NCBI GenBank assembly: GCA_947632085.1 | Contig: CANRNY010000005.1 | Location: forward strand, 12,873 to 76,872 | DNA: 64,000 nucleotides | Source: an uncultured Bacilli bacterium | GTDB taxonomy: Bacteria; Bacillota_I; Bacilli_A; RF39; UBA660 | Direction of reading: 5' to 3' | In this document: in pieces, positions 12,179-43,344 of the stretch | Layout of the letters: each line of letters opens with the position of its first letter | Position numbering within the stretch: the first letter of the stretch is position 1 | The notes under the pieces: model-generated | What the model saw: only the letters and a program-made list of their open reading frames with translations | Told to the model about the DNA's origin: nothing | Databases searched by the model: none | Position numbers and translations under genes: made by a program

Positions 12179-12908
12179 AATGGAAGTAATAAGTTCATTA
12201 GATAATAAAAAAATAAAGAATTATAGTAAATTATTACAGAAGAAATATCGTGATATAGATAATTTATTTATTGTCGAAGGAGAACATTTAGTAAAGGAAG
12301 CTTATACATCTAATGTATTAGTAGAAGTTATTATGTGTGAAGATTATGAAGTAGATATAGATGTACCTATTACTTATGTAACATATGAAGTTATTAAGAA
12401 GTTAAGTAATACATTAAATCCGCAAAGAATAATGGGAATATGTAAAAAAGTAGATAGAAAAGAAATAGGTAATAAAGTATTAATTTTAGATGATATACAA
12501 GATCCAGGTAATTTAGGGACAATTATACGTAGTAGTGTCGCATTTAATATAGAGACAATTATTTTATCTAATAATAGTGTTGATGTTTATAATGATAAAG
12601 TAATTAGAGCTAGTGAAGGGATGTTTTTTAAGATTAATATTATAAGAGATGATATCGTTAAGATAATAAATGAATTAAAAGATAATGATTATATGATATA
12701 TGGTACAAAAGTAGATAATGGTGAAGATATAAATAAAATAAGAGCTCCTTTTAAGTACGCATTAGTAATGGGAAATGAAGGAGCTGGAGTAAGTGATAAA
12801 GTACTTAGTTTATGTGATAAATACTTATATATTCCAATGAATAGTAATTGTGAGAGTTTAAATGTAGGAGTTGCAACAAGTATTATATTATTTTGTTTAA
12901 ATAAATAG
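12171..12908 (+). CDS. TrmH/SpoU family RNA methyltransferase
   Basis: IQDPGNLGTIIRS, GNEGAG, IPM...ESLNV motifs. Confidence 0.95.
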   Translation: MNKMEVISSLDNKKIKNYSKLLQKKYRDIDNLFIVEGEHLVKEAYTSNVLVEVIMCEDYEVDIDVPITYVTYEVIKKLSNTLNPQRIMGICKKVDRKEIGNKVLILDDIQDPGNLGTIIRSSVAFNIETIILSNNSVDVYNDKVIRASEGMFFKINIIRDDIVKIINELKDNDYMIYGTKVDNGEDINKIRAPFKYALVMGNEGAGVSDKVLSLCDKYLYIPMNSNCESLNVGVATSIILFCLNK

Positions 12909-39715: not shown

Positions 39716-40717
39716 TTAATTGTATTCATCTTCGATATTACCAACAATTTCTTCTATAGCATCTTCCATTGTTAAAATACCAATAAATTCGTTATTATCC
39801 GTAATGATAGAAATTGTTTCGTGGTTTTCTTGCATTAAACGAAATATATCATCTATCTTTTCATTTTTATCAAAAAATAAAGTTTTATGGATAATATCTT
39901 TTAATTTAAGAACTTTATTACTTTGTTGAAGATAAATAAAATCTTTAATATTGATATAACCTAAGACTTTATCATCTTTTAAAACTGGATAACGCGTAAA
40001 TAGTTTCTTTTTTATTTTTTTAATAATTTCTTCTTTAGAATCATTGATGTCTAAACAGGTAATTTCACTACGAGGAGTCATAATCTTTGAAGCTCTTTTA
40101 TCATTAAATTTAAAAATATTTAAAATATATTCTTTTTCTTTTTCTTCCACGATTCCTTCTTTACTACCTGTAATTATCATGTGTTTGATATCTTTTTCAG
40201 TTAAGGAGTTATCATGTTCTTTAATATGAAATATTTTACAGATAAGATCAGTTGAAACCGTAAGGAGAATAATTAAAGGGTAGAATATTTGCGAAATAAA
40301 AGAAATAATATCAATCGTTAAATTAGCTATTTTAAGAGGATTTGAACGAGCAATTTTTTTAGGAACTAATTCACCAAAGACTAATGTTATGTAAGAGAGA
40401 ATTAAAGTTATAATAACCATTAATACATTTTCAGTAAAATTAATACTGATAAAATAAAGGCCATATTCTTCAATAAGAATATCAGTAAATGTTTCAGAAG
40501 CAAAAGCACTAGCTAGAAAGCCAGCTAAAGTAATACCAATTTGAATAGTTGATAAAAATTTACTTTCTTCATTTAACATTTTAAGTATTTTTTTAGACTT
40601 CTTATCTTTTTTATGACTAATAGTATATTTATCTAACGATAGATAAGCTATTTCACTAGCTGATAAAAGACCATTTATAAAGATAAGAATGGCTAGAAAA
40701 AAGAATCTAATTAACAT
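39716..40717 (-). CDS. CNNM/CBS-domain (hemolysin C/CorB-like) protein
   Basis: SASEIA, STIQIGITL, FGELVPKK, tandem CBS domains; lacks the CorC C-terminus. Confidence 0.9.
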   Translation of the reverse strand: MLIRFFFLAILIFINGLLSASEIAYLSLDKYTISHKKDKKSKKILKMLNEESKFLSTIQIGITLAGFLASAFASETFTDILIEEYGLYFISINFTENVLMVIITLILSYITLVFGELVPKKIARSNPLKIANLTIDIISFISQIFYPLIILLTVSTDLICKIFHIKEHDNSLTEKDIKHMIITGSKEGIVEEKEKEYILNIFKFNDKRASKIMTPRSEITCLDINDSKEEIIKKIKKKLFTRYPVLKDDKVLGYINIKDFIYLQQSNKVLKLKDIIHKTLFFDKNEKIDDIFRLMQENHETISIITDNNEFIGILTMEDAIEEIVGNIEDEYN

Positions 40718-40787
40718 ACAATCACCATTAATAGTATAGCATAATTATTAAATAAAATTATGATATAATTATAAATGGAGTGATAAT

Positions 40788-41099
40788 ATGGATTTAAAAG
40801 ATACTTTTAGATATCTAGTTGGAGCTTACTACGGTGTAAGTGAAATGGATAATTATGAATTAAAAGAATATGTATTAAAAGATATCGAAGAATATATAAA
40901 AGAGTTTATAAAAGATAATCCAATCAAAGATTTTGATTATCGTAAGGAAGCAGATTTAGTTAATGAAGAAAGAAGTGTTAAAACTAAATTACAAGATAGT
41001 TTAATTGTTTTACCTAAAGTTAATGCTTCGATGGAACTTATTTTATTAGTAAAAGCGAAAATAAAAGAATTAAGGGAAGAAGAAATAAATTTAAATTAA
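40788..41099 (+). CDS. small hypothetical protein
   Basis: GGAGTG RBS and TGaTATAAT promoter upstream. Confidence 0.7.
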   Translation: MDLKDTFRYLVGAYYGVSEMDNYELKEYVLKDIEEYIKEFIKDNPIKDFDYRKEADLVNEERSVKTKLQDSLIVLPKVNASMELILLVKAKIKELREEEINLN

Positions 41100-41119
41100 T
41101 TTAAATTTAAATTAATCTA

Positions 41120-41148
41120 TTGACAACTAAATAAAATGGTGTTATAGT
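41120..41148 (+). promoter_or_regulatory. strong sigma-A promoter of putative ncRNA
   Basis: TTGACA (41120-25), 17 nt, TG-n-TATAGT (41143-48). Confidence 0.8.
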
Positions 41149-41154
41149 AATATT

Positions 41155-41483
41155 ACTTGATAGTAAAGTAGACATTAAAGTTATTTTTTCTCTTTTTACT
41201 ATTTAGATTTTTAATCTATAATAGTCGATATTATTTTTATAATAATATCCGATAACAGTTATTTGTTATCCATAACATTCTGAAATATGTTTGTTATTAA
41301 CTTATTTTTTTAAAATAAGTTCAAAAGAGAAAAATAGCTTGTCTATGAATCGCTGAACTATCAAGTTGTACGTACGTTGGTGGATCTTAGATCAGTGAGT
41401 ATCATCAAAATTATTCTGTCAAATGGTTTTAGTGATATTTTCCACCAGGGATATAGCGTTGACAGATGCTATATCTTTTTTTT
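41155..41483 (+). ncRNA. putative large structured non-coding RNA of unknown family
   Basis: Own promoter and terminator, no ORF in the track; nested long-range stems, five internal hairpins, two pseudoknot-type complementarities. Confidence 0.75.
41448..41483 (+). terminator. intrinsic terminator of the ncRNA
   Basis: gatatagcg-ttgacaga-tgctatatc followed by T8. Confidence 0.85.
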
Positions 41484-41524
41484 GTGCTTAAAATTTGCTA
41501 TACTTAGAGTAGTGGAGGTGGACG

Positions 41525-42250
41525 ATGATAAATAAAGTTAACTATTTTATTGGATTTTGTAGTTATATTATGGCAATTATCTTAGTTATTTATTATTTGA
41601 TTTTAGAGTTTTCAATCATAACTCTTACATCACCTCTTGATCGAATTAAAATTGTTATATTAACGGTTTTATTAATGTATATAGGTTTAACTTTTTTAAA
41701 GAAAACGGGCAATGAGATTTTTAATAAGTTACCTAAATATAATCTTATAATATGGTTTGTTTTATATTTAATAATGATTTTAAATTTAACATTATTTGAT
41801 AAGTATTTTGGAAGAACTTCAGTAGTTAATAGTATTACAGATATCTTAGATTATCAAAGAATGAAAAATGATTTTGATTCTTTTGCTAATACCATTCCTT
41901 TTAGAACGATTAATAATTTTTATATCGGTTATCAAAATGGGAATGTTGGATTAGAATATTTTTTACGTAATATAGTAGGCAATTTAATTGCTTTTACCCC
42001 ATTAGCTTTTTTCATACCAAGGCTTTTTAAATTTATTAATAAATGGTATAAATTCTTTATTATTGCAAGTATTTTTATATTAGGAATTGAATTTTGTCAG
42101 TTTTTAATGAATAGTGGGGCTTTTGATATCGATGATTATCTTTTAAATATAAGTGGAACTATGGTATTATATATATTAATAAATAACAAATGGGTAAAGA
42201 GTTTGTTAGATAGAATGTTTTATTTAGAGAAGGAAGAAAAAATATGTTGA
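41525..42250 (+). CDS. VanZ-like family membrane protein
   Basis: NTIPFRTI, GNLIAFTPL, IEFCQ....GAFDIDD.LLN. Confidence 0.9.
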   Translation: MINKVNYFIGFCSYIMAIILVIYYLILEFSIITLTSPLDRIKIVILTVLLMYIGLTFLKKTGNEIFNKLPKYNLIIWFVLYLIMILNLTLFDKYFGRTSVVNSITDILDYQRMKNDFDSFANTIPFRTINNFYIGYQNGNVGLEYFLRNIVGNLIAFTPLAFFIPRLFKFINKWYKFFIIASIFILGIEFCQFLMNSGAFDIDDYLLNISGTMVLYILINNKWVKSLLDRMFYLEKEEKIC

Positions 42251-43344
42251 GGAAAGAATTAAAAGATAAGTTATTACTTATTACATATGCAATTATATTA
42301 TTTGTTTGCTTGATGAATTATTCATGGATAGGAGGTATTTTAAAAAATTTATTTAAATTATTATTACCTTTTATTATAGGTGGAATTGTAGCTTTCATTT
42401 TAAATGTATTAGTTAAGATGATAGAAGATAGTTTATTAAAGAAAATGAAAAAAGGTAAGAGAGCTACTAGCGTTATTTTATCTTTAGGATTTATTATTGG
42501 TTTTATAGCAATTATTTTATTTATTTTGATTCCACAAATTCATAATGCTAGTCAAATTTTTATTGATAATATTCCTGAGTATCAACAAAATATTTATAAT
42601 TTAGGTAAGAAGATAGGACTTAGTGAAGAAGAATTAGAATTTGTAAATTTAGAAAATAATAAATTAAGAAATGAAATTACTAATTTGATTAGTAAAAATT
42701 CCAAAAGTATAATTAATGCATCAATGGGATTTGCTAATTCAGTATTTAGTGCAGTATGTGATTTCTTTATTGGATTAGTATTTGCTATATATATATTATT
42801 TGATAAAGAGAGATTAACAAGACAAATAAAGAAATTATTAAAGAAGGTATGTAATAGTAAAGTATATAATTTTATAGTAGATTTAGGTCATATGTCATAT
42901 CTTTCATTTAGTAATTTTATTAAGGTACAAGTTTTTGAAGCTTGTGTGTTAGGTAGTTTATGTTTTGCGGGAATGGCTATTATAGGACTTCCTTATGCTG
43001 CTACTGTATCAGTATTAGTAGGAGTTACAGCATTGATACCAATTTTTGGGGCTTTTATAGGTTGTATAATTGCAGCTTTCTTAATATTTATGGTTAGTCC
43101 TTTAGAAAGTGTTATATTTGTTATTTTCTTTATAATATTACAACAAATTGAAACGAACTTTATTTATCCTAGAGTAGTAGGAGGTAAAGTAGGACTTCCT
43201 GGAATATGGGTTTTTGTTGCTGTAGTAATTGGTGGTAGTATTGGTGGAGTATTTGGAATGTTATTCGGTGTTCCGGTAATGTCAGTAATTTATACTTTAT
43301 TAAAGAATTATGTAAATAAAAAAGAAGGAGTTAAGAGTAGTTAA
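42244..43344 (+). CDS. AI-2E (PerM) family transporter
   Basis: PFIIG...AFILN, LIPIFGAFIG, QQIETNFIYPRVVG. Confidence 0.93.
   Translation: MLRKELKDKLLLITYAIILFVCLMNYSWIGGILKNLFKLLLPFIIGGIVAFILNVLVKMIEDSLLKKMKKGKRATSVILSLGFIIGFIAIILFILIPQIHNASQIFIDNIPEYQQNIYNLGKKIGLSEEELEFVNLENNKLRNEITNLISKNSKSIINASMGFANSVFSAVCDFFIGLVFAIYILFDKERLTRQIKKLLKKVCNSKVYNFIVDLGHMSYLSFSNFIKVQVFEACVLGSLCFAGMAIIGLPYAATVSVLVGVTALIPIFGAFIGCIIAAFLIFMVSPLESVIFVIFFIILQQIETNFIYPRVVGGKVGLPGIWVFVAVVIGGSIGGVFGMLFGVPVMSVIYTLLKNYVNKKEGVKSS

Follow-up and report, generated by a model that had tools for sequence, protein, structure and literature searches.

What is encoded between a gene of 103 amino acids (aa) and a VanZ-family gene of an uncultured Bacilli bacterium, at positions 41155-41483 of a 64,000-nucleotide (nt) stretch of its genome? 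This stretch, called the window hereafter, covers positions 12,873 to 76,872 of contig CANRNY010000005.1 (assembly GCA_947632085.1). The original prediction, made from the sequence of the window, described a stand-alone structured RNA, representing either a new large class of non-coding RNA (ncRNA) or a very divergent housekeeping RNA. All the elements that it listed are present where it had placed them. The comparative analysis reported here points to an independently transcribed, structured ncRNA gene on the + strand, a divergent and enlarged member of a superfamily that includes the PGK RNA motif (Rfam RF03040), and whose product would act in trans as a particle dimerizing via a self-complementary linker. 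The probability of this reading, taken as a whole, is estimated at about 60%. As far as sampled, the superfamily is restricted to one family of small-genome uncultured Bacilli.

The window was scanned with Rfam at gathering thresholds, models of the large OLE, ROOL and GOLLD RNAs included, and no family matched, in line with the absence of known family motifs claimed earlier. Relaxing the threshold to E <= 10 on 40900-41700 returns two matches only, to eukaryotic small nucleolar RNA models (E ~6-7, chance level). The housekeeping option is rejected, as the window genome (G000: 1.71 Mb, 36 contigs, 94% complete) carries RNase P RNA of type B (contig C21, 266 bits), the small signal recognition particle (SRP) RNA (C6, 64 bits) and transfer-messenger RNA (tmRNA; C20, 130 bits) elsewhere, all three above the Rfam cut-offs, plus a 6S RNA candidate at C22:4585-4770 (locus L052, 45.0 bits, E 5e-8). 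The window RNA is, thus, not the sole candidate for any of these four roles. The 6S candidate lies just below its gathering cut-off (46.4) and would escape standard annotation. A repeat or mobile element is also rejected, since the window RNA is single-copy in G000.

Transcription unit and covarying fold

Both transcription signals of the original prediction were recovered. The promoter (TTGACA at 41120, TG-n-TATAGT ending at 41148) matches the consensus at 11 of 12 positions, with the TG present, and is the sole 11/12 site in 40000-43000, where promoter-like sites are not enriched (24 observed vs 25.8 expected). Its TTGAC is invariant across four aligned homologues, and its spacing from the 5' ACTTRATAG of the transcript recurs in units from other genomes. 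The terminator consists of a 14-pair stem (41447-41478) and a T-run; terminator-like sites were observed three times against 0.5 expected. The + strand of the element folds at -99.3 kcal/mol, compared with -54.8 +/- 4.5 kcal/mol for 100 shuffled sequences (z = -9.81; 0/100 as stable), and the opposite strand at -79.2 kcal/mol (z -8.1). The perfect 10-nt inverted repeat starting at the predicted first base (41155-64/41357-66) and a 12-nt repeat (41185-96/41323-34) were confirmed, while the nested stems and the second domain (41378-84/41441-47) are part of the minimum-free-energy fold. The element contains no open reading frame (ORF) of note. A single + strand frame of at least 30 aa exists within it, a 52-aa TTG frame (41377-41535) that is not length-conserved in homologues and is broken by indels.

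Assembled RNA-seq contigs of 95-297 nt, from three runs of one study, map to 41171-41448, with a summed mean word depth of up to ~100 in one run. Several come from close relatives of the strain, and their shares of 0.15-0.20 reflect short contigs, several of them from these relatives rather than from the window strain. They lend weak support to expression of the window RNA. No contig of the three runs covers 40700-41170 or 41449-41700, and such gaps were not taken as evidence. The positions of all features are collected in Table 1.

Table 1. Features of the RNA gene and its surroundings (window coordinates)
Feature	Position	Strand	Remarks
103-aa gene	40788-41099	+	Directly upstream of the window RNA
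Sigma-A-type promoter	41120-41148	+	-35 TTGACA 41120-25, 17-nt spacer, extended -10 TG-n-TATAGT 41141-48
RNA gene	41155-41483	+	~329 nt, predicted start to end of terminator T-run; basis: fold, promoter/terminator, covariation, RNA-seq contigs
P1, 5' strand (P1a)	41155-41164	+	ACTTGATAGT; first bases of transcript; pairs with 41357-66
Variable domain	41168-41346	+	Closed by GTAGACA/TGTCTAT (41168-74/41340-46) and long stem 41178-96/41323-40; five AT-rich hairpins
X	41349-41356	+	ATCGCTGA; 5' strand of pseudoknot helix X:X', abuts the P1 3' strand upstream; pairs with 41392-98
P1, 3' strand (P1b)	41357-41366	+	ACTATCAAGT; inverted repeat, covariation
Self-complementary linker	41367-41376	+	TGTACGTACG; between P1b and Y; proposed dimerization site; unpaired in monomer fold
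Y	41378-41384	+	TGGTGGA; 5' strand of helix Y:Y', pairs with 41441-47
Small hairpin	41383-41393	+	GATC-TTA-GATC; edges compete with Y:Y' and X:X'
X'	41392-41398	+	TCAGTGA; 3' strand of pseudoknot helix X:X'
L1 hairpin	41397-41440	+	Apical loop CTGTCA 41416-21
Y'	41441-41447	+	TCCACCA; 3' strand of Y:Y'
Intrinsic terminator	41447-41483	+	Stem 41447-78, T-run to 41483; loop TGACAG 41461-66, partner of the L1 loop
Extended -10 of VanZ-family gene	41496-41504	+	TG-c-TATACT; outside the RNA; kept in 4/4 genomes
VanZ-family gene	41525-42250	+	Pfam match; downstream of the window RNA

By BLAST, two genomes of the genus have full-length homologues (81-83% identity), and another one has a partial homologue. 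Among the 79 consensus pairs predicted for the four aligned homologues, 13 show compensatory changes (two of these pairs belong to the closing stem, one to TGGTGGA/TCCACCA), and the structure is, accordingly, more than a product of chance. The multibranch domain stressed by the original prediction is present in the fold, but it is the variable part of the RNA; conservation is confined to the two ends, namely 9-10 nt at the start of the transcript and ~150 nt at its 3' side.

Within this core, the first 9-10 nt would pair with a segment ~125 nt from the 3' end, forming helix P1, which closes the species-specific variable domain. Two P1 pairs are compensatory in the four sequences, and five of nine in a set of 57. 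The segment X, just 5' of the P1 3' strand, would pair with the downstream X'; because X:X' crosses both P1 and Y:Y', the core is predicted to be a double pseudoknot. In 83 distinct sequences, seven of the eight X:X' pairs are compensatory and 92.9% of the cells are paired, versus 34-50% in controls with the partner strand shifted by 1-3 columns. These segments make up 50 distinct complementary types, with a mean run of 8.24 nt for own partners versus 6.20 for mismatched ones (20.6% of the mismatched reach the own median). In the core of Y:Y', all four pairs are compensatory and 97.2% paired. The small hairpin between Y and X' changes from C-G to U-G to U-A in homologues (86.8% paired, 3/3 pairs compensatory).

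The 3' end is tied into the same fold. Almost all pairs of the L1 and terminator stems are compensatory (11/13 pairs in the terminator stem, 96.6% paired), and the L1 loop CUGUCA and the terminator loop UGACAG form a six-pair kissing contact that is paired in 98.3% of cases. Concerted switches occur to CUGACA/UGUCAG (4 sequences), CUAUCA/UGAUAG (L064) and CUGAUA/UAUCAG (L066), in addition to U-G wobble variants. By this pairing, the terminator would be a fixed part of the fold. P1, the crossing X:X' helix and the six-pair kissing contact are, hence, shown by comparative evidence to be supported by covariation. In the second copies of three loci (L045:1079-1222, L041:1920-2060, L047:1066-1211), the terminator loop has no GACAG and a TGACAAC stands between the L1 hairpin and Y' instead, which may be a relocated partner of the L1 loop. 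On the + strand, G-U is frequent among the conserved pairs (single pairs show, for instance, UG in 28 and GU in 21 sequences). On the other strand, these would be A-C, which fixes the strand and disfavours a feature acting at the DNA level.

X:X' was counted on the model-fitted alignment A9, because the plain MAFFT alignment A8 had X one column off in some rows, and Y:Y' on A7 alone, because Y' is misaligned in A9 and A10. The latter consists of 57 of the 81 units with a 5' end, namely those matching the family pattern; units above 420 nt were dropped, and the first 5'-end finder had mis-picked several (for example, L088 and L038). Promoter score alone places the 5' end at wrong AT-rich sites in about one third of the units, and no count is based on such placements.

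The variable domain differs in length and sequence between genomes, is almost entirely base-paired in the nine members folded (the window RNA and eight others), and has no element conserved between genera. Larger units of the genus (L032, L034, L036, L038, L039, L044, L046) contain, in the middle of this domain, a hairpin with the conserved loop TTGAAAGAYAY, which is absent from the window RNA. The two largest units (~575 and ~596 nt; L046:442-1233, - strand, genome G003) each display a TTCCTAGTGTTT-like motif three to four times, every time in a hairpin of its own, and these could be repeated binding sites.

Relation to the PGK motif and distribution

Three covariance models were used to follow the family: R1, representing the conserved 3' 147 nt, R2, built on 25 sequences, and R3, built on 46. 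In an Rfam scan of ten related loci, one of them, L066 (genome G093), is assigned to RF03040, 'PGK RNA', with 61.7 bits for a cut-off of 50.8. L066 is also the only one of 12 family members to match RF03040 at E <= 1, and it is recognized by R2 (32.7 bits) and R3 (47.1 bits, E 2e-5). The proposal of a new ncRNA class, therefore, stands in part: the window RNA itself is invisible to Rfam, but its homologues are tied to a known motif. It falls below membership of RF03040, as no match is obtained at the gathering threshold of 50.8 bits, at E <= 10 on 40900-41700, or in G000 as a whole.

The 92-nt model of RF03040 spans an X:X' helix (CUUAUC/GAUAAG), a small internal hairpin, and an L1 hairpin with the loop ACUGAUAA. 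The outer helix, which encloses ~45 nt, has a counterpart in the window at 41349-56/41392-98 (AUCGCUGA/UCAGUGA). For the small hairpin of the model (GAG-AAAGAAAA-CUC), the window offers at the same place the covariation-supported GAUC-UUA-GAUC, unlike in sequence and with edges that compete with the neighbouring helices. The 3' hairpin is present at 41397-41440, but its loop is CUGUCA, matched by UGACAG in the terminator instead of UUAUCAG. Beyond the 92 nt, twelve canonical PGK loci have a consensus promoter, and their 5' end (GCUUAG...) is the complement of the stretch that follows X. Their linker is a palindrome of the CAAUUG type (at least 10 nt in 11/12), and the L1 loop CUGAUAA is followed in all 12 by a UUAUCAG loop 31-81 nt downstream, with a flanking stem of at least 7 bp in 10/12. 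Because L066 scores above the RF03040 cut-off and the canonical loci share the full architecture, the window RNA is, as judged by comparative sequence analysis, a divergent and enlarged variant of one superfamily, of which the Rfam PGK family appears to model the 92-nt 3' core.

The two branches occur in the same bacterial family and show the same order of elements: X:X' around the P1 3' strand, the palindromic linker plus a small hairpin, then the hairpin that pairs with the terminator loop. They differ in the small hairpin, in the loops (CUGUCA/UGACAG in the window, CUGAUAA/UUAUCAG in PGK), in the linker (GUACGUAC-type versus CAAUUG-type), and in the GGUGG/CCACC helix (Y:Y') of the window, for which no counterpart was located by eye in PGK-type sequences. 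Moreover, Rfam describes PGK as a 92-nt cis-regulatory element, whereas the unit considered here is 260-600 nt long, with its own promoter, a helix at its 5' end and a structurally integrated terminator. The PGK motif probably stems from Weinberg et al. (2017), who presented 224 candidate RNAs. The main text of that article contains neither 'PGK' nor 'phosphoglycerate kinase'; the motif is presumably dealt with in its supplement, which may also cover terminators, gene context and pseudoknots. No paper on the PGK RNA motif or RF03040 was found in the literature searched. L066:1532-1651 (+) also resembles the Bacillus small RNA (sRNA) ncr1015 (RF02449; 38.8 bits for a cut-off of 60, E 0.035), over the L1 hairpin, with its CUGAU-containing loop, and the terminator. 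This match is below the cut-off and concerns one sequence, the window RNA being unmatched; it may be due to chance or hint at a similar loop-terminator arrangement in Bacillus, and no relationship is claimed.

R1 matches 20 of the 27 genomes of the window's genus and, at the order level, only one genome besides G000, the model being too narrow. Among 149 sampled genera of the family, the window's own genus not counted, R2 matches 10 further genera and R3 matches 11, while RF03040 matches 19, 15 of them above its cut-off, and leaves the window's genus unmatched. Two genomes are matched by both models (G093 and G112), and the union of RF03040 and R3 amounts to 28/149 genera. Outside the family, R2 and RF03040 both remain without a match in 137 genomes of the class, drawn from 25 other families. 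A scan with an exact pattern, demanding CTGTCA and TGACAG, over one genome per prokaryotic species gave 62 stretches, 50 of which were confirmed by R2, the 12 others being scattered over unrelated phyla, as by chance. The confirmed records are almost all entitled 'uncultured Bacilli bacterium' or 'uncultured Tenericutes bacterium', with a few 'Mycoplasma sp. CAG:956' and 'Candidatus Coprovivens' (Bacilli incertae sedis).

Unit length ranges from ~260 nt in other genera up to ~600 nt in the window's genus. Some loci hold more than one unit. In G007, a tandem of five complete units spans ~2.1 kb without any credible intervening gene. Every unit is closed by a terminator of its own, and four have a TTGACA-17-TATAAT promoter, that of the fifth lying at the locus edge.

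The linker as a dimerization site

Between P1 and Y lies a linker whose sequence varies while its symmetry is kept. Of 51 distinct linkers, 46 are self-complementary over a centred 8-12 nt (median 10, compared with a mean of 6.0 after shuffling), and their central tetrads include ACGU, GUAC, AAUU, CAUG, GCGC, CCGG, AUAU and UAUA. Because the neighbouring bases at the centre are unable to pair with each other in a single molecule and the palindromes covary, we infer an RNA-RNA dimer. When two full-length window RNAs are co-folded with RNAcofold, exactly 41367-76 is self-paired, with a free-energy gain (ddG) of -12.7 kcal/mol. Taken together, sequence comparison and modelling suggest that dimerization via the linker is more likely than the formation of a small hairpin.

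The exceptions are found where several copies coexist, since all five non-self-complementary linkers belong to multi-copy loci. In the G007 array, the linkers of copies A and B form 11 Watson-Crick pairs with each other and those of copies C and E form 8, a value that 0/76 linkers from other loci reach for each. In the two-copy loci L041, L045 and L047, there are two different palindromes each, which would give two separate homodimers. Dimerization would, on this model, be symmetric for a single gene and involve defined heterodimers after duplication into arrays. Retroviral genomic RNAs offer a parallel: a short palindrome at their dimer-initiation site drives homodimer formation, and replacing it by two complementary non-palindromes leads to obligate heterodimers. 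These sites are hairpin loops in viral genomes, whereas the present site belongs to a bacterial ncRNA and is a linker without secondary structure of its own, and the analogy is limited to the mechanism.

A closer comparison is provided by OLE, ROOL and GOLLD. Kretsch et al. (Nature 2025, PMC12286853) argued in the same way, from adjacent bases that covary as palindromes, for bridges in OLE and GOLLD, and these were later seen by cryo-electron microscopy. OLE, ROOL and GOLLD resemble the window RNA in being large, elaborately folded, of unknown function and lineage-restricted, with symmetric contacts deduced from palindromes of changing sequence and with variable or disordered internal regions. 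Covarying palindromes of the kind used there to recognize symmetric intermolecular pairing are found here as well, on comparative evidence only. The window RNA differs in lacking sequence or model similarity to them and in its smaller size (~260-600 nt). Its contact is a proposed 10-12-nt linker duplex and not a kissing loop, and the multimer is predicted only, while heterotypic, copy-specific interfaces encoded in arrays are not mentioned in the available text of that article (PMC12286853).

Rival readings, genomic setting and meaning

Rfam types RF03040 as 'Cis-reg', and one may, therefore, ask whether the window RNA is a riboswitch or attenuator, sensing a ligand or protein and controlling terminator read-through into the gene that follows, in this case the one of the VanZ family. 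This is rather improbable. Within the genus, the RNA always precedes a VanZ or AI-2E permease gene; 71 of the 82 nearest downstream ORFs are co-oriented, most of them starting 28-115 nt after the terminator; and a ligand could in principle act at the contact between the internal and terminator loops. However, the nearest downstream ORFs of the 82 loci represent ~40 unrelated families (12 VanZ, nine of an unknown family, five AI-2E, three rpsL and one pgk, the gene to which the motif's name refers, besides HU, murG-like and RNase J-like), seven of the ORFs being convergent, in place of the consistent gene set expected of a cis-regulator. No antiterminator was detected in the 3' domain of ~150 nt, neither terminator strand having a covarying alternative partner (own 6.80 vs cross 6.78 for one, 6.99 vs 6.73 for the other), and the terminator loop is constrained within the fold. 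Arrays in which as many as five complete units stand in tandem, without an intervening gene, are also difficult to reconcile with a leader. Lastly, the VanZ-family gene has its own extended -10, as first proposed: the TG-n-TATAMT element is conserved in 4/4 aligned genomes, despite a 20-nt insertion before it in one. The unrelated downstream genes and the lack of a detectable antiterminator, thus, favour a trans-acting RNA; an independent transcript rather than a leader is also what the original prediction had proposed.

Would such an RNA need to dimerize? It could be a monomeric sRNA or sponge, whose variable domain works by mRNA pairing or protein titration. In that case, the core would be needed only to stabilize the RNA or to bind a chaperone, and the palindrome would form a small hairpin. 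The strong promoter and terminator, the paralogues and the fast-evolving centre do resemble multi-copy sRNA families, and the repeated TTCCTAGTGTTT-like motif of the G003 units, a possible set of binding sites, and the shared TTGAAAGAYAY loop fit this picture. Yet it is unlikely, given a variable domain that is nearly all paired and unconserved between genera, and a hairpin would explain neither why the four central linker bases stay self-complementary despite sequence change nor why non-palindromic linkers occur only beside a complementary paralogue. A last reading dispenses with RNA altogether, in favour of a DNA-level feature (nested palindromes, an origin, a mobile-element remnant), a chance AT-rich fold, or a protein gene in the 52-aa frame. 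The variable-domain hairpins are indeed near-perfect and AT-rich, and the opposite strand folds well too, but the element is single-copy, its promoter and terminator are both + oriented, its + strand folds better by 20 kcal/mol with conserved G-U pairs, RNA-seq contigs cover it, and the 52-aa frame does not survive the indels of homologues. This reading is, consequently, considered extremely improbable.

Several points weigh against the dimerizing, trans-acting PGK relative preferred here. Alignments A7, A8 and A9 were fitted to the structure. The P1 set was picked by complementarity, so that its 99.2% pairing is circular and concerted changes alone count; likewise, the 50 loci from the pattern scan were required to hold CTGTCA and TGACAG, which partly builds in the kissing-loop pairing, the informative switches coming solely from model-found sequences. 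X is joined to P1b and the next helix by linkers of 0-2 nt, and X:X' could be an alternative state that does not coexist with them. The case for homology to canonical PGK is built on shared architecture and one bridging sequence, with no sequence-level homology seen by R3: run with filters off on 14 PGK-type loci (the 12 canonical ones and the sub-cut-off L141 and L142), it gives five weak matches, the best at 23.7 bits (E 0.026). As to the linker, only 24 of the 51 individually beat their own shuffles at p <= 0.05, and a 10-12-nt palindrome could also form a hairpin of 3-4 bp. The copies of L090/L128 pair mutually over 12 bp, compared with 6 bp for the second copy with itself, but 22-23 of 79 unrelated linkers (ACGU-type) also reach 8. 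The linker of G007 copy D (L048:1503-1654, -), GGCGCGGGCGAAT, is GC-rich and neither self-complementary nor complementary to other copies of the array. The RNA-seq data are assembled contigs from a single study, without ends or strand, and DNA may be present in RNA libraries. Finally, the predominance of co-oriented neighbours leaves some cis effect by read-through possible.

In most R1-positive genomes of the genus, the RNA occupies one syntenic locus, in the order CNNM/CBS gene (-), the 103-aa gene (+), one or several RNAs, the VanZ-family gene and an AI-2E-family permease gene (Pfam). The 103-aa product matched no Pfam or NCBIfam family, and its gene is a neighbour of the RNA across most of the genus but not in other genera. 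Between its stop codon and the -35 box of the RNA lies an AT-only palindrome without spacer (TAAATTTAAATT/AATTTAAATTTA, 12-nt arms, 41084-41121); positions 41080-41121 were flagged as a skipped repeat in the mapping of RNA-seq contigs. Elsewhere in the family, the RNA gene of L061 (genome G242) is surrounded by nine tRNA genes, on both sides and both strands, and in L113 a 382-aa ORF starting with MKILKGYVFRMYPTEKQ... follows the RNA at ~104 nt and is a putative IS200/IS605-type TnpB/OrfB protein.

The proposed mode of action of the window RNA is that of a stable particle acting in trans, both ends of which would be protected. Its conserved core would constitute an assembly module, whereas the variable domain would be displayed or act as a spacer, and could offer proteins or RNA a platform to bind to. 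The best guess is a stable, self-assembling architectural RNA. A broader proposal, put forward tentatively and at somewhat less than even odds, is that the window RNA and PGK represent two branches of a so far unrecognised class of self-assembling RNAs of 260-600 nt in small-genome gut Bacilli, with a double-pseudoknot core locked to the terminator loop. In this class, the linker would have repeatedly evolved from a palindrome to complementary non-palindromes, arrays would encode heterodimers through a 'programmable' interface, and the cis-regulatory label given to PGK by Rfam would be wrong.

The PGK motif has so far been one orphan among many, a conserved 92-nt fragment from gut metagenomes, filed as cis-regulatory and without a function. 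The present results suggest that this fragment is the core of a larger stand-alone RNA, and that a second, equally widespread branch goes undetected by Rfam. Annotators are offered a model with which to recognize a gene that escapes them at present, the 28 genera mentioned above having at least one of the two branches. If the dimers and heterodimers are real, the family would provide a natural case of quaternary structure made of RNA only, small enough to be tractable, together with a record of how interface specificity changes after duplication, and it would bear on the purpose of large ornate bacterial RNAs.

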